A stretch of DNA of 64,000 bases, from the NCBI GenBank assembly GCA_046350935.1, contig JAXLZK010000010.1:18569-82568 (forward strand), given 5' to 3'. A model generated the notes under the pieces. It saw nothing but the letters and a program-made list of their open reading frames with translations, did no database searches and was not told the origin of the DNA. The stretch is from Thermodesulfovibrionales bacterium (GTDB lineage: Bacteria > Nitrospirota > Thermodesulfovibrionia > Thermodesulfovibrionales > Dissulfurispiraceae). The translations under genes and the position numbers were made by a program. Below are positions 45,432-59,274 of this stretch, piece after piece. The first letter of the stretch is position 1; each line of letters starts with the position of its first letter.

Positions 45432-45513
45432 AAAAGCCGGCTTCCCGCCTCCGTCCGGGGCAGTATCGGTGAGGTTGCGAAAACCCTTCCCCACCTGATA
45501 AAATTAAGGTTGT

Positions 45514-45587
45514 GCGCCCATAGCTCAGCTGGATAGAGCGTCAGACTACGAATCTGCAGGCCGGGGGTTCGAATCCCTCTGGGCGCG
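45514..45587 (+). tRNA. tRNA-Arg (anticodon ACG)
   Basis: - Hand-folded cloverleaf.
- The acceptor stem pairs GCGCCCA with TGGGCGC.
- The D arm is GCTC-AGCTGGATA-GAGC.
- The anticodon loop is CT-ACG-AA.
- The T arm is GGGGG-TTCGAAT-CCCTC.
- No CCA is encoded. Confidence 0.9.
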
Positions 45588-45608
45588 TTGATAAGACCCT
45601 TAAATAAT

Positions 45609-51922: not shown

Positions 51923-51977
51923 TGAAATAAAGAGTGGAGCTGAACGGGATCGAACCGTCGACCTCTTGAATGCCATT
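51923..51977. repeat. Left direct repeat of the integrated element: displaced 3' part of tRNA-Ala plus about 12 nt of flank
   Basis: TGAAATAAAGAG-TGGAGCTGAACGGGATCGAACCGTCGACCTCTTGAATGCCATT matches 59189-59244 except for one A in a homopolymer. It covers tRNA positions ~33-73, from the anticodon loop to the 3' end. Confidence 0.9.
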
Positions 51978-52135
51978 TACCTACATGTATCCCCTGTATT
52001 TTGTCCCCTGTCTCATCTTATTTGCTCTTATCTGTTTCTTCTAGTCCTTACTGATAAATTGTTCCTTCATATTATCCCTTGTTTTACCTTATCAAGTATA
52101 CAAAAACTATACACAACAAAAGGAGAACTAAAATG

Positions 52136-52161
52136 GAGGGCTTCGGCCCTCTCTCTTTTTT
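52136..52161 (+). terminator. Rho-independent terminator-like hairpin at the left edge of the element
   Basis: GAGGGC-TTCG-GCCCTC followed by TCTCTTTTTTG. It overlaps a 19-codon mini-ORF (MEGFGPLSFLLTLGTKCLE) that has an AAGGAG SD. Confidence 0.5.
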
Positions 52162-52162
52162 G

Positions 52163-52190
52163 TTGACTCTTGGGACAAAATGCTTAGAAT
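52163..52190 (+). promoter_or_regulatory. Candidate sigma-70 promoter of the cargo operon
   Basis: TTGACT (52163-68), a 16-nt spacer, then TAGAAT (52185-90). It lies 25 nt upstream of ATG 52216, which has an AGGAGG SD. Confidence 0.5.
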
Positions 52191-52215
52191 AGGTGAAAAC
52201 ACTCAGGAGGTTGCC

Positions 52216-52668
52216 ATGATGAAAGGACTGATTACACTTCTACTATGCTGTATGCCTGTTGTCGCTTTTGGGTTTGATTTGGAGACACTGGACGACGACT
52301 TTGATCCTAGGGATTTAAGGAATTACAAAGGGGCAACACTGGCAGTCTGCAATATAACTGATACCAAGGGAAAGATGGTCACTACTGCCAAAAAAGGGGA
52401 TACCATTACCTTTGCAAACTACTTTATTAAGACGGATTCCGAGCTTGTTGATTATGACGTTGATATAAGTTATCCCACTTCTAACTCAGGAAAATTCAAC
52501 ATGACAGCTAACTACAAAGGACAGTTGTATATAACAGGCAGTAGTAAGATCCAAATTGTTGCTCTATATTTTGTAATCCCAAATAGTTCCTATTCTTCAG
52601 GAACATTGACTGTGACGGCAACTGTTTCCTCATTCGGAACGTGTTCAAAAAGCATTACTGTAAATTAA
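52216..52668 (+). CDS. Cargo gene 1: small secreted protein of unknown function
   Basis: The signal peptide is MMKGLITLLLCCMPVVAFG. About 130 aa of beta-rich, Ser/Thr/Asn-rich sequence follow. I recognise no family. The track ORF starts at 52180. Confidence 0.6.
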   Translation: MMKGLITLLLCCMPVVAFGFDLETLDDDFDPRDLRNYKGATLAVCNITDTKGKMVTTAKKGDTITFANYFIKTDSELVDYDVDISYPTSNSGKFNMTANYKGQLYITGSSKIQIVALYFVIPNSSYSSGTLTVTATVSSFGTCSKSITVN

Positions 52669-52682
52669 TAGGAGGGGATTCC

Positions 52683-53108
52683 ATGAAAAAAGGGGTATCG
52701 GCAGTTCTAATTCTCTTTTTCTTATCTGCATGTGCAACAAGTCCTGACAGCATCCAGAGCGCGTATGTTTCTCCATTGCAGTACAAAGGATATGACTGTG
52801 ACCAGATCATTGAAGAATCCTCGCGCGTGGCCCGAAGAGTAGGCGAGCTGAATGGAAGCCTTACTAGAAAGGCAAGTAATGATGCCGTAGCCACAGGCGT
52901 AGGACTGGTATTGTTCTGGCCTGCTCTTTTATTTATTAAAGGGAACGGGCCTGAAGCGCAAGAATTTGCCCGAATGAAAGGTGAATATGAGGCATTAGAG
53001 AAAACTGCCATAGAGAGGAAGTGCAATACCGCAATGATGCCCAAAATACAATTGCAGCAGCCTGAGCAAGAAAAAGTAAACATCTCTAGTACAGTACCAG
53101 GTATTTAG
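52683..53108 (+). CDS. Cargo gene 2: lipoprotein of unknown function
   Basis: ATG 52683 is preceded by a GGAGGGG SD. The lipobox is VLILFFLSAC. The pattern YVSPLQYKGYDCDQI..GVGLVLFWPALLFIKGNGPEAQEFARMKGEYEALEKTAIERKC matches a widespread uncharacterised lipoprotein family, as far as I remember. Confidence 0.6.
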   Translation: MKKGVSAVLILFFLSACATSPDSIQSAYVSPLQYKGYDCDQIIEESSRVARRVGELNGSLTRKASNDAVATGVGLVLFWPALLFIKGNGPEAQEFARMKGEYEALEKTAIERKCNTAMMPKIQLQQPEQEKVNISSTVPGI

Positions 53109-53227
53109 ACGAGTTTCTATCCTATAAAAAGAGAGAATTACAGGGGATAGGGTAGCTCCCGAAAAGCCGCACTCCGCGGCCTTCCCCTGATCAATTCCGG
53201 AGAACCACGTCGGAGAGGTGGAACGAA

Positions 53228-54235
53228 ATGGAAAAGATTTTTGCCCGCAAGAAGGATTTAATCATAAGAGACCCCGTATACAGGAGTGCTAATAAATTGC
53301 TCGCTAAGATAGTTGCTGCACGGTGTGAGAACGGAGAGAACATTTTAGCACCGCACGCTACGTACGATCCTATTTTTGATGAAATAGGAAGATATTATGC
53401 TACTTCCTTTTGTCCCGATAAAATCCGGGACCAGCATGAAAAAGAGCATCCTGATTATTGGGAGCTTTTTCGGCTAACCGGAGAGATAGGCAGTAAGTGG
53501 CGTGTGCATGTGGAGATCAACTTTGCAGAAAAGGAGATATCTGTTGCGCCATACACCCATGACGAAGCAATATGGGTGGGATGCCCTCCTTTTGATAAGT
53601 ACGCAACGCATAACGCCTCTGTCCACTATCCTCAATTAAAATGGACTCCATACCCCAATCCTTTCAACAAGCCACCAATTTTGGCAGATATCAACGAATT
53701 TACCACTCCAGGGTACAAATGTCCAGGGAACTGGATACCAATTTTAATTAATGCCTCCCGACTGAATTATCAGGACGCTAAAGAGATAAAAAAGCGAATA
53801 TGGGAGTTTGTTGAGAAGCGTTTGACTAAAGGTAAAGACACGTCCCCGGAGCATGAATACCTGGAATGCGCTTTCCTGTACAGCACAAAGGAGAGTACCT
53901 TTAAAAATTATTTGCGATGGTATGATCTTCATGTCAATGAAAAGATAAGTATTCGCTTGATTGCTCACATTGAAAGCAATCCGGGGAAGGCAATAGAAAC
54001 CCTGCAACGACTTAATCACGGCAAAATAAAATGGGGCCTTACCATCGCCGGAGAGGATAAGATTCAAAAAGGGGTAGCCAAGGTCTTTAAAGCAATTCAC
54101 CGGAAAGACTATACAAAAGAGGATGTGATGGAAGAATATAATTGCCCGTCTCATGGAAGTAATTGTCCTCAAAAATGTTCCTACCTGAAGGAATGGGAGG
54201 GAAAGTTCAACCGACTATTTCCAAGTAATATTTAA
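53228..54235 (+). CDS. Cargo gene 3: 335-aa cytoplasmic protein of unknown function
   Basis: Intact ORF with AT-rich codon usage like the rest of the element. There is a possible HTH-like segment (YLRWYDLHVNEKISIRLIAHIE). A C-terminal Cys/His cluster reads NCPSHGSNCPQKCSY. I recognise no family. Confidence 0.55.
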   Translation: MEKIFARKKDLIIRDPVYRSANKLLAKIVAARCENGENILAPHATYDPIFDEIGRYYATSFCPDKIRDQHEKEHPDYWELFRLTGEIGSKWRVHVEINFAEKEISVAPYTHDEAIWVGCPPFDKYATHNASVHYPQLKWTPYPNPFNKPPILADINEFTTPGYKCPGNWIPILINASRLNYQDAKEIKKRIWEFVEKRLTKGKDTSPEHEYLECAFLYSTKESTFKNYLRWYDLHVNEKISIRLIAHIESNPGKAIETLQRLNHGKIKWGLTIAGEDKIQKGVAKVFKAIHRKDYTKEDVMEEYNCPSHGSNCPQKCSYLKEWEGKFNRLFPSNI

Positions 54236-54344
54236 AAGCCCCTGAATTAAAAAGAGAATAAAAGCACCCCCTCTTTTTTTCGGATTTTTCGTAGGTAGGA
54301 GAGCCTGGCTCTCCTGCGAAACGAAACCCGAGAAGGAGAGTGGA

Positions 54345-54599
54345 ATGAAGGAAAAACAGTTTCATACCGGTGATGTCTATGTCGCCGCCGCCGTAACCCT
54401 CCAGATTGGCAAGCCGCCAGAGTTCAAGACAGAGAAACAGAAGGTCCTTTTTGTTTTCCCTATCAGCGATGAGCTGCATAAGGCACTTAACGCATTCAGC
54501 AGTGGTGTCTCACTCAATGCCTATGAATTCGCTCAGATGATTAAGCGCTTGCGCGCCGAAATGCTGATGAGGAAGGGACAGGCAGGGAGTACGAAATGA
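54345..54599 (+). CDS. Small protein, DUF5659-like (from memory)
   Basis: The 84-aa sequence ..TGDVYVAAAVTLQIGKPPEFKTEKQKVLFVFPISDELHKALNAFSSGVSLNAYEFAQMIKRLRAEM resembles small proteins found next to replication genes of phage and islands. Its stop overlaps the next ATG (ATGA). Confidence 0.4.
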   Translation: MKEKQFHTGDVYVAAAVTLQIGKPPEFKTEKQKVLFVFPISDELHKALNAFSSGVSLNAYEFAQMIKRLRAEMLMRKGQAGSTK

Positions 54600-55123
54600 T
54601 AAAGCCGGACCTATCGCAGGTGATCGAATCCGAGGGAATAATCCTCCGACAGCGTGGTAAGGACTTCTGGGCCTGTTGCCCTCTCCACGGAGAAAAAACC
54701 CCTAGCTTCAAGGTTGACCCAGACCGGCAGACATTCTATTGCTTCGGTTGCCATGAGCACGGGGACGTGATTTCTTTTATCCAGAAACATAGGGGTCTTT
54801 CTTTCAAAGATGCAATCCGCTACCTGGGCATGACCACCGGACCCCTCACACCGTCCCGCCGGGCAGAGATCGAGCTGCAACGCCGGAAGAGGGAAGCGAC
54901 ACAAGAGTTCCGGGCCTGGGTAGACGAATACCATCGAGAGTTGTGCTCGCTGTATCGCTGCTTACAGACAGCCAAAAGAAAAGCCCGAACCCCGGAAGAG
55001 GTGGAGAGGATAGCACCTTCGTATCACAAAGAAACCGAATGGATTCGGCGGCTGGACATTCTGGAATCCGGCAGCGATGAGGAGAAATTCAGGTTATGGA
55101 AAGAGGTGAAGACGGATGAGTGA
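54596..55123 (+). CDS. CHC2 zinc-finger (DnaG-type primase N-terminal) protein, no TOPRIM domain
   Basis: FWACCPLHGEKTPSFKVDPDRQTFYCFGCHEHGDVISFIQKHRGLSFKDAIRYL is a canonical zf-CHC2. The protein is only 175 aa. Confidence 0.8.
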   Translation: MIKPDLSQVIESEGIILRQRGKDFWACCPLHGEKTPSFKVDPDRQTFYCFGCHEHGDVISFIQKHRGLSFKDAIRYLGMTTGPLTPSRRAEIELQRRKREATQEFRAWVDEYHRELCSLYRCLQTAKRKARTPEEVERIAPSYHKETEWIRRLDILESGSDEEKFRLWKEVKTDE

Positions 55124-56048
55124 TTTTGACCTGGGGAACCAGCTTCTGAAAGAGCAGCGCGGCTTAAAGGCAGTAAGCCTTACTGAGATTCTCGCCATGG
55201 AGTTTCCTCCAAGGGAGAACATTCTTTACCCATGGCTTCCTTCTCAGGGGCTTGCAATGCTTTACGGAACAAGAGGCACGGGGAAAACTCATGTTGCCCT
55301 GGGAATCGCCGTAGCTGTAGCGAGTGGGGGGAGCTTTCTGAAGTGGACCGCCCCGAAACCGCGCGGTGTTCTTCTTCTTGACGGTGAGATGCCCGCCGTA
55401 ACGCTTCAGGAGCGGCTGAGCGCCATTATATGCAGTAGCGACAAAGAGCCGGTATCACCTCTTACTATCATCACACCTGACCTTCAGAAGGAGGGCATGC
55501 CAAATCTTGCACATTCAGACGACCAAGAAAATATTGAAGAGCACCTTAAAAATATTTCCCTTGTGATTGTCGACAACCTTTCCACTCTTTGCCGGTACGG
55601 GCGGGAGAATGAGGGAGAATCATGGCTACCAGTGCAGGAGTGGGCCTTACGTCTTCGTACCATGGGAATCAGCGTGCTTTTCATCCACCACGCAGGAAAG
55701 GGGGGACAGCAGCGCGGTACCAGCCGCAAAGAGGACGTGCTGGATACGGTCATTGCGCTGAAGAGACCCGCCGATTACCGGCCCGACGAGGGAGCCCGTT
55801 TTGAGGTCTACTTTGAAAAGGCCAGGGGAATCTATGGGGACGAGGTGAAACCCTTTGAAGCACGGCTTACCACCACACCGGAGGGCGCACAGATATGGAC
55901 CATGAAGGACCTGGAAGATTCTTTGACAGAACGCATTGCCGAAATGCTCAACGAGGGCATACCGCAGAGCGAGATACCGGAGTTCTTGGGCGTGGGGAAG
56001 GCGACGGTTTCAAGGCACAAGCAGAAGGCAAGGAACGAGGATTATTGA
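55116..56048 (+). CDS. RepA-like AAA/RecA-fold ATPase (AAA_25 type) with C-terminal HTH
   Basis: Walker A is LYGTRGTGKTHVALGIAVAVASG and Walker B is LVIVDNLSTL, followed by ISVLFIHHAGKGGQQRGTSRKEDVLDTVIAL. The terminal HTH is IPEFLGVGKATVSRHKQKA. It overlaps the upstream gene by 8 nt. Confidence 0.75.
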   Translation: MSDFDLGNQLLKEQRGLKAVSLTEILAMEFPPRENILYPWLPSQGLAMLYGTRGTGKTHVALGIAVAVASGGSFLKWTAPKPRGVLLLDGEMPAVTLQERLSAIICSSDKEPVSPLTIITPDLQKEGMPNLAHSDDQENIEEHLKNISLVIVDNLSTLCRYGRENEGESWLPVQEWALRLRTMGISVLFIHHAGKGGQQRGTSRKEDVLDTVIALKRPADYRPDEGARFEVYFEKARGIYGDEVKPFEARLTTTPEGAQIWTMKDLEDSLTERIAEMLNEGIPQSEIPEFLGVGKATVSRHKQKARNEDY

Positions 56049-56062
56049 AGGGGTAATGAGTT

Positions 56063-56266
56063 GTTCCGCTGTTCCACTCTCTAGGGAATGGAACGCGGAA
56101 CAAAACACAGGAAAACGAGAAACAAGGAGCGGAACACCATGGAACAGAACGGCATAAAAGCCTTAGCACTCAAGGTAATACAGCGGAACAACCAGCGGAA
56201 CATGAACGGAACAGAGGGCGAAATAGAGCGGAACAAAACGCATAATCACGGAACAGACCGCGGAAC
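56063..56266. repeat. Iteron array (candidate replication origin): at least 10 copies of (G)CGGAAC
   Basis: - Seven direct GCGGAAC copies begin at 56095, 56129, 56183, 56195, 56228 and 56260, plus CGGAAC at 56207.
- A further CGGAAC begins at 56249 and GGAAC at 56141.
- Two inverted copies (GTTCCGC and GTTCC) lie at 56063-56075.
- The array starts 15 nt after the RepA-like gene. Confidence 0.65.
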
Positions 56267-56513
56267 GCTCCAGAAAACTTTTGACTCTCTCTTCCGGGAG
56301 CACATGGCATTTCTCCGGGGACATTCTACGACCCTTGATGAGATTAGACGGCATGACCCGGAAATAGCCGAAGAACTCCTCTCTCTTTCACGGGCGATGG
56401 ATGCGGCATGGCTCAGGGAAGACCTTCCGGCCTTCAGGGAGAGTATGCAGCGGCTGGAGACGCGGTATCTTCAGGCGCACAGGTGGATTACAGCAGTCCG
56501 TCTCTTAACCTAA
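56139..56513 (+). CDS. Hypothetical protein of the element
   Basis: ATG 56139 has an AAGGAG SD 9 nt upstream. The track ORF starts at 56088. The first ~40 codons overlap the iterons, which read as repeated R-N dipeptides. The C-terminal part is helical. I recognise no family. Confidence 0.45.
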   Translation: MEQNGIKALALKVIQRNNQRNMNGTEGEIERNKTHNHGTDRGTLQKTFDSLFREHMAFLRGHSTTLDEIRRHDPEIAEELLSLSRAMDAAWLREDLPAFRESMQRLETRYLQAHRWITAVRLLT

Positions 56514-56544
56514 ATTAACCGCAACCACGGTAAACGGAGGAATA

Positions 56545-57135
56545 ATGCGAAAGATTGACGATAGCAAACTTTTAGAAATGATTGAGGACGGTAAATCTCA
56601 AAAAGACTGTGCTGCATTCTTCAATGTCAGTGAACCGGCAATCACGAAACGCTTAAAGAAGCTAAGAGCTTGTGTGCTCCCGGAATCAGTGAAGCGGCTA
56701 ACGGGCAAAGAACAGCGCTTTGTACTCGCTCTTACTCAGGGGAGAACCCAAACGGCGGCAGCAATGGAAGCCTTCGATGTAACGAGCCGTGACAGTGCAA
56801 AAACTATAGGGAGCCGACTTGCTAAAGAGCCGGAAATTAAGGCCGCTATCACGGACCTGCTAAGCATGAAAGGTGCTTCCCCGGGATGGGTGGCGGAGAG
56901 ATTCAAATTCTGGGGGGATGCTCTGGACCCGCAGGCATCACTAAGGGCGGTGGAGAATGTGGCGAAGCTTCACGACCTCTACCCCGCATCCAAGAGCATG
57001 AATATGAACATCGACATGGCAACTCTTGTGAAAGTCGATCTGAGCGAGTACGAGAACCCGGAGCCCATCTCCATACAAGGTGAGACAGGGATTAACTGTC
57101 CTGAAAATTGTAACGCGTCCGAGGAGGAGAAATGA
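56545..57135 (+). CDS. Terminase small-subunit-like DNA-binding protein (extra N-terminal HTH)
   Basis: LTGKEQRFVLALTQGRTQTAAAMEAFDVTSRDSAKTIGSRLAKEPEIKAAITDLL follows the Terminase_2 pattern LT.KQ.rF..eY....N.tqAa..AGYs...A...g.rLl....i..aI. The N-terminal HTH is GKSQKDCAAFFNVSEPAITKRLKKL. Confidence 0.55.
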   Translation: MRKIDDSKLLEMIEDGKSQKDCAAFFNVSEPAITKRLKKLRACVLPESVKRLTGKEQRFVLALTQGRTQTAAAMEAFDVTSRDSAKTIGSRLAKEPEIKAAITDLLSMKGASPGWVAERFKFWGDALDPQASLRAVENVAKLHDLYPASKSMNMNIDMATLVKVDLSEYENPEPISIQGETGINCPENCNASEEEK

Positions 57136-57205
57136 TATTTATTGTCTCCTGGGAGTCCCTGTTGCCCCCTCCCCCCTGGGGCCTGGAGGTTGGAGGTAAA
57201 TAGCA

Positions 57206-57508
57206 TTGAAAATTGAACTCGAAGGGCAAGACATTGAGGCAGTGGCGTTAAGAGTGGTTGAACTCATAAGACCCGCTCTTGCTTTACTCAGTAAGCAAGA
57301 GGATGATACCATCTATGACCCTGAAAGCCTTGCACAGTATCTCAGGGTAGATGTTTCATGGATATACAAGAAAGTATCGCTTAAAGCTATCCCATACTTC
57401 AAAAGCGGGAAATATACAAGGTTCAGGAAGTCCGCAATAGATAAATGGATCGAGATGCAGACGGTGAAGCCAGTCCACTTTATAAAGCAGGGAAAAGGGC
57501 AGGGGTGA
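57206..57508 (+). CDS. Excisionase/AlpA-like helix-turn-helix protein
   Basis: The gene uses a TTG start. The C-terminal half SLAQYLRVDVSWIYKKVSLKAIPYFKSGKYTRFRKSAIDKWIE matches the HTH_17/excisionase pattern. Confidence 0.6.
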   Translation: MKIELEGQDIEAVALRVVELIRPALALLSKQEDDTIYDPESLAQYLRVDVSWIYKKVSLKAIPYFKSGKYTRFRKSAIDKWIEMQTVKPVHFIKQGKGQG

Positions 57509-57602
57509 GCACTTGATAATATATCATGAAACCTTGGGAAAAAATAATAACAAATCAGTACCATTTAGTCACCTGTATAGTGAATTGTATACTTCATTCA
57601 TC

Positions 57603-57632
57603 TTGACAACATCTAACTTAGTTAGGCATAAT
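57603..57632 (+). promoter_or_regulatory. Promoter with embedded palindromic operator, giving a leaderless XRE transcript
   Basis: TTGACA (57603-08), an 18-nt spacer, then CATAAT (57627-32). The spacer contains the perfect palindrome CTAACT-T-AGTTAG (57613-25). ATG 57639 lies 6 nt after the -10 and there is no SD. Confidence 0.55.
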
Positions 57633-57638
57633 TTGAAC

Positions 57639-57872
57639 ATGAAGGAATGGACGAAAGAGGAAATCAAACAGTTCAGAGAGTGCCTAGAGCTTTCGCAACC
57701 TGCTTTCGGAAAGCTTATAGGGGTAACAGGGAATTACGTCTATCTAATTGAAAAGGGGGTGAAGAAACCTAGCAGGACATTAGTGCTTTTGCTCAACTGT
57801 ATTGAGGAGAAGGCATCAACAAAGAAAAAGGAAAGGGTGGTAACTAGTTATGGACTGGCAAGAGAAAATTGA
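57639..57872 (+). CDS. XRE/Cro-CI-family HTH regulator
   Basis: MKEWTKEEIKQFRECLELSQPAFGKLIGVTGNYVYLIEKGVKKPSRTLVLLL is an HTH_3 pattern. The track ORF begins at 57513, upstream of the promoter. Confidence 0.75.
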   Translation: MKEWTKEEIKQFRECLELSQPAFGKLIGVTGNYVYLIEKGVKKPSRTLVLLLNCIEEKASTKKKERVVTSYGLAREN

Positions 57873-58062
57873 GGAGCATTTGACGTTGCTGTTGGTCTCC
57901 TTTTTGTTGTCTCGTATATCTTTGAAAGTGTTAGGGGATGGCTGCAAGAGAATCTAGTCCTTGTGCTCTCTACGCTAATTGTAGTAGCCGTTATAGACTT
58001 GAAAAATCACATTGATGGCGCTGCAACGCGGTACTTCTTAAATCATGAAAGGGGAATGAACT

Positions 58063-59173
58063 ATGGCGAAAGGGATATATAAGCGTGGGAGTATTTTCTG
58101 GATTCGCTATGCAGGACTAGACGGAAAGATTGTTTTTGAAACTTCCGGCTCTAATAAGTTTAAAGATGCCGAAACCCTACTTATCAAGCGGAAGAACTCT
58201 ATCAAGGAAGGTAAGCAGCCGGAAATTAAGAAAATAGGGAATCATACCTTTAATGAGCTTGTCGACCAGTACAAGAAATGGGCTGAACGGCAGCGGAGCT
58301 TTAAGAGCAAAGAGTACCTTATAGATCAATTAGCAGAAAATTTCGAAACCTCCCTTTACGGCGCTTCAACACCATGCTTCTTGAACAGTTCCAATCCGAA
58401 CGTTTACAGAAGGGTAAAGAGCGAGAAGTGAAGCCGGGATATAAGCCGATAGCAGTTACAGGGAATAAGCCTGCTACGGTTAACAGGTTTATTGCTACAA
58501 TCTCTCATATGTTCACCAAGGCCGTAGAATGGGACATGGTGGAAGAGAAACATTAAGACGTGTTCGCAAGGTAAAGCTTCTCCTGAGAACAATAAGCGGC
58601 TCCGATATCTCTCAAAAGAGGAATGCCAAACACTGATAGAGAAGTGCGATACACATTTAAAGCCTATCGTCATTACGGCTCTTAATACCGGAATGCGGAA
58701 GAGTGAAATACTTTTCCTCAAATGGGATAACGTAGACCTGAAGCACGGCTTTATCCTACTGGACATAACGAAAAATGGCGAACGTAGAGAGATACCCATC
58801 AATAATACCCTGAAAGCCTTACTACAGAGCATTACACGGCGTTTAGACGTACCTTACGTGTTCTTTGAGCCTTCCACTGGGAAGCCTTACGGTAATGTGA
58901 AAGAAGCTTCAATACGGCCCTGGAGGAATGCAAAGATACGGGACTTTCATTTTCATGACCTACGGCATACCTTCGCATCTCATCTAGTAATGGCGGGAAT
59001 AGACCTTACGACAGTAAAGAACTCTTAGGGCACAAGGATATTAAAATGACCTGAGATATGCCCATCTTGCACCGGCGCATAAGGTGAAAGCTGTAGATAT
59101 TCTAGATAACGCACTGTCTGGAAAGCCAACTATACAAAAAGTATACAATCAGGTGGTTGGTGGAGAATTTTAA
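58063..59173 (+). pseudogene. int: Tyrosine recombinase/integrase of the element, at least four frameshifts
   Basis: - MAKGIYKRGSIFWIRYAGLDGKIVFETSGS.. is the Arm/SAM-like N-terminus, in ORF 58063..58431.
- ..MLLEQFQSERL..NKPATVNRFIATISHMFTKAVEW is in ORF 58374..58556.
- ..ALNTGMRKSEILFLKWDNVDL..FHFHDLRHTFASHLVMAGIDLTTVK is in ORF 58693..59028.
- ..LLGHKDIKMT.RYAHLAPAH..VVGGEF lies in other frames.
The catalytic R, HxxR and Y contexts are all present. Confidence 0.8.
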
Positions 59174-59188
59174 TGGTAGGCAAGTGGT

Positions 59189-59274
<86 letters not shown>

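Follow-up and report, generated by a model that had tools for sequence, protein, structure and literature searches.

Among the described systems closest to the locus reported here, PICIs have a core set of int, a regulator, pri-rep, a capsid-morphogenesis gene and terS, with four of the five accepted, and Proteobacteria or Firmicutes host more than 99.9% of the PICIs detected by SatelliteFinder (PMC10085698). VEIMEs (virion-encapsidated integrative mobile elements) are marine and were found from environmental sequence (PMC9618062), and PICMIs are elements of about 6 kb with an int, alpA and primase core (PMC10803314). More generally, terminase genes are read as a sign of phage mobilisation (PMC11389934). 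Within the 64-kb window, the whole stretch of DNA that was analysed, we find in a Thermodesulfovibrionales (Nitrospirota) genome an island that qualifies as a credible, as yet unproven, phage satellite, a type with no earlier report in this phylum; the reading is credible because genes for integration, self-replication and a TerS-like protein are present and virus-particle genes are absent. We consider it probable that the island is a PICI-like, helper-dependent minimal satellite belonging to an undescribed family in Nitrospirota and other environmental bacteria.

The island is a real mobile element that occupies 7.3 kb (51925–59244) inside a tRNA-Ala gene, and it is bigger than the span that had been flagged (54345–59173), which left out its left 2.4 kb. 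It is bounded by a 53-bp exact direct repeat (repeat family D1; 100% identity, spacing 7267 bp), which bears out the size of about 7.3 kb and the tRNA-Ala location given in the original prediction. The GC content of the island is 0.39–0.54 versus about 0.58–0.60 in the flanks, and all of its genes share a single strand. The two copies of another repeat, 90% identical, are tentatively put forward as arm-type recombinase or RDF sites, with the caution that two-copy repeats may be chance products.

Table 1 Features of the island, in window coordinates.
Feature	Position	Strand	Description
attL	51925..51977	.	Left 53-bp repeat copy; duplicate of a tRNA-Ala 3' fragment
Candidate arm-type recombinase or RDF binding site, copy 1	52093..52113	+	TATACAAAAA(C/G)TATACA, repeat family D12
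Terminator-like hairpin	52135-52152	+	Upstream of cargo genes; 52135..52190 together with promoter-like site
Promoter-like site TTGACT-16-TAGAAT	52163-52190	+	3' of hairpin, 5' of cargo genes
Cargo gene 1	52216..52668	+	150-aa secreted protein
Cargo gene 2	52683..53108	+	141-aa lipoprotein-like protein, lipobox LSAC
int-alpA RNA motif (Rfam RF02996)	53140..53203	+	41.4 bits vs gathering score 35.8
orf335	53228..54235	+	Orphan 335-aa protein, syntenic core gene of island type
84-aa protein	54345..54599	+	DUF5659 match weak, below threshold
CHC2 zinc-finger protein	54596..55123	+	175 aa, DnaG-type zinc-binding domain and helical C-terminal half
RepA-like AAA_25 ATPase	55116..56048	+	Putative replicative helicase and initiator, C-terminal HTH
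Iteron array, putative replication origin	56062..56267	+	Ten CGGAAC copies, nine direct and one inverted
Small ORF over iterons	56139..56513	+	N-terminal motif LKALAxKVL common to relatives
TerS-like protein	56545..57135	+	196 aa, two HTH domains
AlpA/excisionase-type HTH_17 protein	57206..57508	+	Pfam, PHROG and NCBIfam matches
Promoter-like site TTGACA-18-CATAAT	57603..57632	+	6 nt 5' of XRE ATG; 11/12 matches
XRE-family regulator	57639..57872	+	Weak HTH_3/HTH_31 matches
Tyrosine integrase	58063..59173	+	Six frame segments in window; homology to L002 integrase
Candidate arm-type site, copy 2	59127..59147	+	Repeat family D12, near opposite island end
attR	59192..59244	.	Right 53-bp repeat copy, overlaps 3' part of tRNA-Ala(GGC)
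tRNA-Ala(GGC)	59201-59274	-	3' part overlapped by right repeat copy

The left part of the island holds two surface-protein genes and orf335, for which we propose cargo or core functions. Family searches (Pfam, PHROGs, NCBIfam, PADLOC) gave no match for the first cargo gene, which has a homologue of 90% identity in a Dissulfurispiraceae island (L031). The second gives a weak match to phrog_13472 (E 1.2e-3), and a role in superinfection exclusion would be speculation. The RNA motif that follows (E 4.5e-6 in an island-wide search) is found in the relative L003 as well, at 47-112. The product of orf335 has no match in the same four family databases or in the PDB, and a Foldseek search with its AF2 model (pLDDT 61) returned nothing; it has seven relatives at 37–47% identity, and in two of the islands (L086 and L088) the gene lies 5' of a small gene, a replicase and a TerS-like gene.

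In the replication module, the gene described as DUF5659-like in the original prediction is present, but its match is weak, at 18.8 bits versus a cut-off of 23.6, and its slot in relatives is filled by small non-homologous genes. The CHC2 protein matches Zn_ribbon_DnaG (Pfam, E 1e-27) and is spanned along its full length by phrog_11992, and a search for Toprim at E<=0.1 gave no match. The claimed domain content of a primase-like zinc finger lacking TOPRIM thus holds; its reading as a loss needs nuance, since the split layout of zinc-finger-only protein and RepA is conserved, recurring in at least two further elements (L003 and L005), and other relatives have complete primase-helicase fusions in its place. 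The RepA-like protein matches AAA_25 (E 4e-29), with weak Pfam matches to HTH families at its C-terminus, and has homologues of 50–71% identity at 30 genome loci in several phyla. It is followed by iterons, as had been noticed: the ten CGGAAC copies compare with about 0.2 expected from the background of 65 copies on both strands of the 64 kb. The array in relatives is likewise 3' of repA, and its motif co-varies with the RepA clade (CGGAACA, GGAAAC(C/T) or GCGCAAC). The small ORF over the iterons is 65% identical to its L003 counterpart.

Matches to small-terminase profiles were found in Pfam, PHROG and structure-profile searches. The TerS-like protein has an N-terminal HTH_28-type HTH (residues 10–41), a Terminase_2-type DNA-binding domain (residues 52–107), a helical region to about residue 145 and then a disordered tail. 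Its assignment as a small terminase is moderately supported overall and firm for the DNA-binding domain only. The Terminase_2 score of 26.1 bits is exactly the Pfam cut-off, and the match covers only profile positions 1-53 of 141. PHROG terS families 641 (E 3e-9) and 51 (E 4.5e-9) are also matched, and 83 of 140 representatives of the family match Terminase_2 (E<=1e-3). The family profile matches the DNA-binding domain of SF6 TerS (E 3e-4) and aligns over 112 residues with the Pam5 small terminase (E 1.8e-3), taking in helices beyond the DNA-binding domain; the C-terminal half has a weak match to one solved TerS. The AF2 model, with a mediocre pLDDT of 69, drew no Foldseek match in the PDB; against BFVD "Terminase small subunit" made up the majority of named top matches. 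Over 47 residues, the DNA-binding domain shares 45% identity with the TerS of a phage contig (L089) with a TerL-like ORF 3' of that gene, and the N-terminal HTH is 55% identical to a protein just 5' of a gpA-type TerL on a second phage contig (L036). The limits of the TerS similarity count against the satellite reading, as do the absence of BLAST-level relatives from 50,697 GenBank phages and the finding of IMG/VR relatives at the level of the DNA-binding domain only.

The island might instead be an integrative, self-replicating element that travels by a non-phage route (oriT-only mobilisation, vesicles or transformation), its TerS-like protein being a DNA-binding regulator or partition-type factor made from a terminase DNA-binding domain. 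We regard this as unlikely, though it accommodates several observations: the strong terminase-profile match is limited to the HTH DNA-binding part, and the protein has two HTH domains, as in bipartite DNA binders. AAA_25 helicases of RepA type are also present in plasmid-like replicons, RSF1010 RepA being an example. The 46 host ORFs of the window match no phage structural family, so that a helper is not seen within it, which counts against a satellite, and oriT-only IMEs, which are difficult to detect, have been described (PMC11389934). However, relaxase (Pfam, PHROGs, NCBIfam, PADLOC) and coupling-protein and T4SS families (Pfam, PHROGs, NCBIfam) are all unmatched in the island, where no oriT was identified either, and RepA gives two weak matches only in 72,556 plasmids. 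The Pam5 alignment reaches past the DNA-binding domain, and the best phage relatives of both HTH domains sit at the TerS position beside TerL. The closest relatives of the island are chromosomal, tRNA-linked islands and not plasmids. Full-length TerS-like relatives occur at 49 metagenome loci within small islands that carry Int, AlpA and XRE, and the replicases of these islands are interchangeable (AAA_25, zf+Toprim+AAA_25, PrimPol+DnaB_C, DnaD+DnaB, Toprim+DUF3631); a constant TerS-like gene beside swapped replicases is the pattern expected of a transfer function. The proposal that an Int–repressor–replication–TerS set marks a satellite is partly supported overall, with TerS profiles matched and no mobilisation gene found.

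As previously claimed, no capsid, portal, tail, TerL or lysis family is matched in the island (Pfam, PHROGs, NCBIfam, PADLOC). Temperate phages also have genes for integrase, XRE, excisionase, replication and TerS-like proteins, as would suit the remnant of a larger prophage stripped of its structural genes, yet we find this very hard to credit for a compact 7.3-kb unit bounded by exact att repeats and free of structural or lysis gene fragments. Many relatives match it in compactness of gene set and in size; one of them (L077) is a 9-kb contig whose ends overlap by 127 bp, closing it into a circle.

The predicted AlpA/excisionase-like HTH is well borne out, by HTH_17 (40.4 bits, above cut-off) and the NCBIfam model "excise" (33 bits versus 28.8). 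The XRE gene follows a promoter-like site that no other in the island equals; the spacer of this site contains a near-palindrome, CTAACTTAGTTAG, as a candidate operator. As this site ends 6 nt before the ATG, the leaderless transcript suggested earlier is plausible. The family matches of the repressor itself are weak. One A is missing from the window at 57825, which alters the XRE C-terminus; an independent contig gives a protein of 69 aa.

The integrase is 63% identical to the intact L002 integrase and reaches 113.7 bits with Phage_integrase after frame correction, which upholds the original call; unnoticed in that call were five frame breaks, near 58345, 58546, 58582, 59020 and 59051, each a successive -1 correction. 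These five disruptions within 1.1 kb, together with window deletions at 57825 and 57885, could mean that this copy is a decaying, immobilised island whose integrase is a true pseudogene, and the assembly is not generally error-prone, because the window and an independent contig agree perfectly elsewhere over 2988 bp. We nonetheless judge decay improbable. Logan contig L035 (run SRR26348421), assembled independently from the same sample, reads intact at the first frameshift and the two other indel positions and has no substitutions in 2127 bp; three indels to no substitutions is unlike pseudogene decay. All five shifts have the same direction, four of them look like a single base lost from a run of at least two identical bases, the catalytic-region segments all remain 60–75% identical to the L002 integrase, and every other island gene is intact. 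The frame breaks are probably assembly errors, since the first is intact in the independent assembly; it is the only one of the five seen to be absent from another assembly, and the disrupted integrase is counted against the satellite reading.

If the island is a satellite, its cycle might run as follows. The integrase would have placed the element at the 3' end of tRNA-Ala, in keeping with the flanking att repeats and with the homology of this enzyme. XRE, whose strong promoter probably yields a leaderless transcript, would silence the upstream operon until repression is relieved by some cue, presumably a protein of the helper phage, and the HTH_17 AlpA/Xis protein and integrase would then produce an excised circle, consistent with the circular 9-kb relative. 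The RepA-like helicase may bind the adjacent 3' iterons through its C-terminal HTH and drive replication, in line with an array whose motif varies in step with the RepA clade; the zinc-finger-only protein could be an accessory that recognises the template or associates with the helicase, primers coming from host or helper. Finally, the TerS-like protein may recognise satellite DNA and recruit the large terminase of the helper, so that this DNA, possibly as concatemers, is packaged into helper capsids.

With P4-like satellites, the island shares a tRNA-linked integrase, primase-helicase type replication and helper dependence as general logic. The P4-like label of the original prediction finds no support beyond this, as sid, psu, delta and epsilon homologues and cos-site evidence are absent from the island, and P4 itself lacks terS. 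Like iOriT elements, which are relaxase-less IMEs (PMC11389934), it is small and integrative and encodes excision and replication but no machinery for its own transfer; it differs in having a terminase-small-subunit homologue. PICMIs of Vibrionaceae are similar in minimal size, int, alpA, a replication core and the absence of capsid-remodelling genes; they differ in having no terS, a DUF3987/DUF5906 primase and integration beside fis (PMC10803314), where the island has a TerS-like gene, AAA_25 RepA with iterons and a tRNA target. The resemblance to PICIs/SaPIs extends to a terminal integrase, site-specific integration, regulation by an AlpA- or repressor-type protein, an initiator-helicase gene with an iteron origin directly 3' of it, a terS of Terminase_2 type, peripheral accessory genes and the lack of structural and lysis genes. 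The island is, however, about half the usual PICI size, lacks a capsid-morphogenesis gene (ppi, cpm, rpp), replaces the usual Pri-Rep with AAA_25 RepA and a zinc-finger-only protein, has all genes co-directional with XRE and int last, carries an extra N-terminal HTH on TerS, and resides in Nitrospirota. The pri-rep profiles of SatelliteFinder may fail to detect an AAA_25 RepA of this sort. By gene content it is also likened to VEIMEs, which are small and integrative with a tyrosine integrase, AlpA and a primase/helicase, and with TerS homologues in some modules (PMC9618062), although habitat and hosts differ. VEIMEs were defined by recovery as concatemers from virus particles, whereas for the island helper induction and packaging are predictions from its sequence. 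The proposed extension of host range is therefore one of phylum and not of concept, because small satellites with Int, AlpA, primase-helicase and TerS, the VEIMEs of marine viromes, were already known.

The boundaries of the island are marked by an exact 53-bp direct repeat whose two copies are spaced 7267 bp apart, the right one overlapping the 3′ part of a tRNA-Ala(GGC) gene. Between the repeats the GC content is 0.39–0.54, compared with ~0.58–0.60 in the flanking DNA and a maximum of 0.67 in the rest of the window. Together, the repeats, the tRNA overlap and the fall in GC are characteristic of an island that integrated site-specifically and duplicated the tRNA 3′ end. The span flagged in the original prediction, 54345–59173, does belong to a mobile unit, but covers only the right two-thirds of the larger element at 51925–59244. 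Just inside each end lies a copy of a 21-nt direct repeat, TATACAAAAA(C/G)TATACA, a candidate arm-type binding site that could also have arisen by chance. The second tRNA gene of the window, tRNA-Arg(ACG), has neither an associated island nor a GC anomaly. Logan contigs of one sequencing run gave no information on a circular junction, as the contig concerned (L092) breaks inside the att repeat.

The genes of the island are all co-directional. The absence of virion genes was correctly predicted: no island ORF matches a capsid, portal, tail, large terminase, lysis, relaxase or T4SS family in Pfam, PHROGs, NCBIfam or PADLOC. The assignment of the 84-aa gene to DUF5659, on the other hand, fails, as the match is sub-threshold in the window and missing from the positional equivalents in relatives. 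Defence-system cargo was considered and rejected, PADLOC yielding domain-level noise only. An int-alpA RNA motif sits between the lipoprotein gene and orf335, with a second copy in the closest split-replicase relative. This motif has been described mainly from proteobacterial Int/AlpA elements, and the match in a Nitrospirota island would link it to that element class.

Features of the island (window) and of related loci
Feature	Locus	Position	Strand	Evidence or content
53-bp repeat, attL	window	51925-51977		
21-nt repeat, left copy	window	52093-52113		candidate arm-type site
Cargo, secreted protein	window	52216-52668	+	no family match
Cargo, lipoprotein-like	window	52683-53108	+	no firm family match
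int-alpA RNA motif, RF02996	window	53140-53203	+	41.4 bits (gathering score 35.8)
int-alpA RNA motif, second copy	L003	47-112		
orf335, orphan 335-aa gene	window	53228-54235	+	no family match
84-aa gene	window	54345-54599	+	DUF5659 sub-threshold only
CHC2 zinc-finger protein, 175 aa	window	54596-55123	+	Zn_ribbon_DnaG E 1e-27, without Toprim
AAA_25 RepA-like ATPase, 310 aa	window	55116-56048	+	E 4e-29; C-terminal HTH matches weak
Iterons, CGGAAC, 1 inverted and 9 direct	window	56062-56267	+	~0.2 expected at window-wide frequency
Small ORF overlapping iteron array	window	56139-56513	+	
TerS-like gene, 196 aa	window	56545-57135	+	Terminase_2 at gathering score; PHROG terS
HTH_17 / 'excise' protein	window	57206-57508	+	HTH_17 40.4 bits; NCBIfam 'excise' above cut-off
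Near-palindrome CTAACTTAGTTAG	window	57613-57625		candidate operator
XRE regulator	window	57639 onward	+	HTH_3/HTH_31 matches weak
Tyrosine integrase	window	58063-59173	+	Phage_integrase 113.7 bits, frame-corrected
21-nt repeat, right copy	window	59127-59147		candidate arm-type site
53-bp repeat, attR	window	59192-59244		
tRNA-Ala(GGC)	window	59201-59274	-	overlaps attR
tRNA-Arg(ACG)	window	45513-45588		
Related island, Nitrospiraceae	L001			fusion-RepA, iteron ORF, TerS-like, Int
Related island, Nitrospiraceae	L002			small gene, AEP-like+RepA fusion, iterons, HTH protein, AlpA, cargo, XRE, Int, tRNA-Val
Iteron array	L001	1346-1543		
Iteron array	L002	10913-11078		
Iteron array	L003	2992-3147		
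Iteron array	L039	5024-5212		
Iteron array	L007	10929-11028		
orf335 family member	L086	1270-2343		
orf335 family member	L088	10001-11155		
IS21-type pair and/or group II intron	L001	8916-11093		intron by Rfam
IS21-type pair and/or group II intron	L002	3175-5500		intron by Rfam
Phage primase-helicase region	L036	951-6032		zf-CHC2+Toprim+AAA_25
Tandem TerS-like genes	L065	1193-1642, 2228-2563		

The predicted integrase is indeed of the tyrosine type once its frame is corrected, but it does not form a single ORF in the window. Alignment to the intact integrase of the Nitrospiraceae relative L002 (63% identity) resolves it into six collinear segments, with the frame stepping −1 five times, near 58345, 58546, 58582, 59020 and 59051. 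Two Logan contigs from run SRR26348421, independent of the window assembly, each cover part of the island. One (L092) is identical to window 51934–54921, with 0 differences over 2988 bp; the other (L035) spans 56388–58508 with 0 substitutions and carries an A at 57825, TGCC at 57885 and a G at 58345 that the window lacks, the last of these being the first integrase frameshift. The four remaining frameshift sites lie outside all other contigs. The deletions, all of a single base but one of four bases, are confined to the 1.3-kb XRE–integrase region, and four of the five integrase shifts look as if a single base had dropped out of a short homopolymer. Three indels without a substitution, the common direction of all shifts and the homopolymer-like appearance of four of them make a local assembly or polishing artefact likely, rather than decay. 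It is quite improbable that the integrase of this copy is genuinely dead; such a defect would modify the other readings of the element rather than compete with them.

The TerS-like gene matches small-terminase profiles, as the satellite proposal demanded. Its product scores 26.1 bits, exactly the gathering score, against Pfam Terminase_2 (PF03592), with residues 52–106 aligned to profile positions 1–53, the DNA-binding domain, and no match past position 53. PHROG terS families 641 and 51 match the same ~55-residue region (~47–107, E ~3e-9). A word-indexed search with the protein returned only 12 proteins, and a profile search of 1.84 billion representatives returned 170 at E<1e-30 and 3712 at E<1e-3. 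Terminase_2 is matched individually by 83 of 140 family representatives; the other matches among the 140 are all to generic HTH families and fall on an extra N-terminal HTH. The family profile also aligns with solved TerS structures, namely the Pam5 small terminase (112 residues, through residue 120, E 1.8e-3) and the SF6 TerS DNA-binding domain (E 3e-4). The AF2 model has low confidence (pLDDT 69), with helices at 96–145 followed by disorder. A Foldseek search with it against the PDB gave nothing below E 0.4, a blank that probably reflects the flexible, all-helix monomer model; against BFVD, the named top matches are mostly 'Terminase small subunit' (E 1e-3 to 1e-1). Among IMG/VR phage contigs, L089 encodes a TerS, with a TerL-like ORF downstream, that shares 45% identity over 47 residues with the Terminase_2-type domain, and L036 encodes a protein, directly upstream of a gpA-type TerL, that shares 55% identity with the extra N-terminal HTH. 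A tblastn search of 50,697 GenBank phages found no relative. Homology to TerS DNA-binding domains is solid; the remainder of the protein, where a TerS has its central helical oligomerisation domain and C-terminal TerL-binding region, could also be of this kind.

Phage contigs L036 and L085 encode a zf-CHC2+Toprim+AAA_25 primase-helicase, as well as a 192-aa protein that has an N-terminal HTH like that of the island's TerS-like protein and overlaps the beginning of a large terminase of the gpA type. Such phages could represent a lineage of candidate helpers or donors.

Apart from the DUF5659 assignment, the replication module is as first described, with a primase-like protein that has a zinc finger and no Toprim, followed by a RepA-like ATPase and ten CGGAAC copies. 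RepA homologues (50–71% identity) were found in 30 genome loci, which belong to Nitrospirota, Desulfobacterota, several Proteobacteria classes, Acidobacteriota, Chlamydiota and Verrucomicrobiota. The iteron arrays lying 3′ of repA in relatives are built alike, with direct copies preceded by one or two inverted ones, and their motif varies by RepA clade (CGGAACA, GGAAAC(C/T) or GCGCAAC), a co-variation that supports a functional initiator–origin pair. Because RepA has just two plasmid matches, both weak and partial, an origin of the island as an integrated plasmid is disfavoured. A recent deletion of the Toprim domain was rejected as an explanation for the split replicase. The Dissulfurispiraceae island L031, which holds the closest TerS relative, carries a TerS-like protein 89% identical and a cargo gene 90% identical to those of the island, but has a different integrase and an unrelated 663-aa zf+Toprim+AAA_25 replicase without tblastn similarity to window proteins. 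Since this replicase is unrelated and the split zf-CHC2/RepA pair is kept in Nitrospirales and Nitrospirae MAGs (L003 and L005), the arrangement points to module exchange, not deletion.

Among the regulatory genes, the AlpA/excisionase-like HTH of the original prediction is well founded in HTH_17 and NCBIfam; it has no match to Phage_AlpA (PF05930), and the model for PICMIs counts PF12728 as AlpA (PMC10803314). The XRE repressor had been called leaderless. A leaderless transcript is plausible because no Shine-Dalgarno sequence is visible and the ATG lies 6 nt past the −10 hexamer of the island's best promoter-like site, TTGACA-18-CATAAT. The near-palindrome CTAACTTAGTTAG lies within the spacer of this promoter and is a candidate operator for XRE autoregulation.

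A metagenome scan for the TerS-like family returned 49 loci, in which the full-length relatives lie within small islands. At least 15 of these islands have a same-strand tyrosine integrase and many have AlpA or XRE, while their replicases are variously AAA_25, PrimPol+DnaB_C, DnaD-like loader+DnaB, Toprim+DnaB_C or Toprim+DUF3631. No recognisable TerL or structural gene adjoins a full-length relative in these loci. One of the contigs, L077, is 9,040 bp long with a 127-bp terminal overlap, indicating a circular assembly, and encodes a replicase, a PDDEXK-like protein, TerS-like, HTH_17, XRE, Int and surface-protein cargo; it is a candidate for a related element in its excised state or in the course of replication. 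Another contig, L065, has two tandem TerS-like genes.

Seven relatives of orf335 were found, always in the same place, upstream of the small gene and replicase of such islands, where orf335 heads the replication operon, and because this position is fixed we regard orf335 as a core gene and not cargo. The family's invariant residues include an FLY...YLxWYD...R.IA block. The protein has no match in Pfam, PHROG, NCBIfam, PADLOC or PDB sequences, and a Foldseek search of the PDB with its AF2 model (pLDDT 61) was blank. Beside the related Nitrospiraceae islands L001 and L002 lie an IS21-type pair, judged by eye to be 524-aa transposase-like and 257-aa IstB-like ORFs, and a group II intron.

The most economical reading of the island is a PICI-like satellite, a reading made wholly from sequence. 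The element would integrate at tRNA-Ala and be kept silent by XRE until a helper phage derepresses it; Int and Xis/AlpA would then excise it, and RepA and the iterons would drive its replication, in which the zinc-finger protein would assist while the host or the helper makes the primers. Finally, the helper's TerL would package the DNA under the direction of the island's TerS. Directly seen are the att sites, the identities of the domains, the iterons with their co-variation, one circular relative and the setting of the family; we infer the regulation, helper and packaging parts of the cycle. Outside the island the GC content of the window is uniform, and no helper prophage is seen there, the 46 host ORFs matching no PHROG family for head, tail, packaging or lysis (best 25 of 27 families). 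It is unlikely that the island instead moves by a non-phage route, for example as an oriT-only mobilisable element, given that no relaxase family is matched in Pfam, PHROGs or NCBIfam, that plasmid relatives are scarce and that the TerS-like gene stays constant while replicases swap. A prophage remnant is far less likely still, as the compact unit recurs in many genomes. Within the satellite reading, and with slightly less than even confidence, we propose that the island belongs to a family of minimal 'TerS-only' satellites of ~7–9 kb that is widespread in the environment, and is its first recognised member in Nitrospirota. The family would be defined by a two-HTH TerS, the orf335 family and freely exchangeable replicase cassettes, and its elements would redirect packaging by their own TerS alone.

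If this is correct, phage satellites extend to Nitrospirota and, judging by the spread of TerS-like and RepA relatives, to many uncultured sediment and groundwater lineages, and would provide a gene-transfer route in slow-growing anaerobes. The near-minimal set of Int, Xis/AlpA, XRE, Rep with its origin and TerS would make a compact model for packaging hijack by TerS alone, and the two-HTH TerS family a marker for mining such elements in metagenomes. Both orf335, a conserved orphan whose position suggests a core role, and the zinc-finger-only DnaG fragment would be worth following up. Should the satellite reading be wrong, the island would remain a clear case of modular replicase exchange in a replicative island that targets a tRNA gene.

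PICI-like elements of 'Type C' are already known in their thousands. We know of no phage-satellite system for slow-growing anaerobes, and no paper that pairs 'phage satellite' with Nitrospir* turned up in a full-text literature search. SatelliteFinder defines PICIs by five components, accepts four (Type B), and places >99.9% of them in proteobacteria or firmicutes (PMC10085698). Judged by function, the island has four of the five: an integrase (five frame breaks in the window copy, the first intact in an independent contig); a regulation module (alpA, merR or stl homologue) in its HTH_17 protein and XRE regulator; a putative functional analogue of the primase-replicase in zf-CHC2, AAA_25 RepA and iterons; and a small terminase, for which support is strong in the DNA-binding domain and weak in the rest. 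It has no capsid-morphogenesis gene of the ppi/cpm type (no such family in Pfam or PHROGs), nor, in any ORF searched against these databases, the forbidden tail, holin, portal or head-tail connector components. The 'P4-like' part of the original prediction is not supported, since the core genes sid, psu, delta, epsilon and alpha are unmatched in any ORF (Pfam, PHROGs) and P4-like satellites share only int and an AlpA-type HTH with the island. Of the relaxase and/or oriT that mark an IME, no relaxase family is matched (Pfam, PHROGs, NCBIfam). PICMIs carry int, alpA and a DUF3987/DUF5906 primase, lack terS and integrate next to fis (PMC10803314), whereas the island has an AAA_25 replicase, a tRNA-Ala site and a TerS-like gene. 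As read from sequence, the island follows the same logic as TerS-bearing PICIs/SaPIs and as some marine VEIMEs, in which a tyrosine integrase, AlpA, primase-helicase and TerS also occur together (PMC9618062). What sets the island apart is its very small size, a one-strand layout ending in XRE–Int, the two-HTH TerS, a zinc-finger-only DnaG fragment, an orphan core gene and its host phylum.
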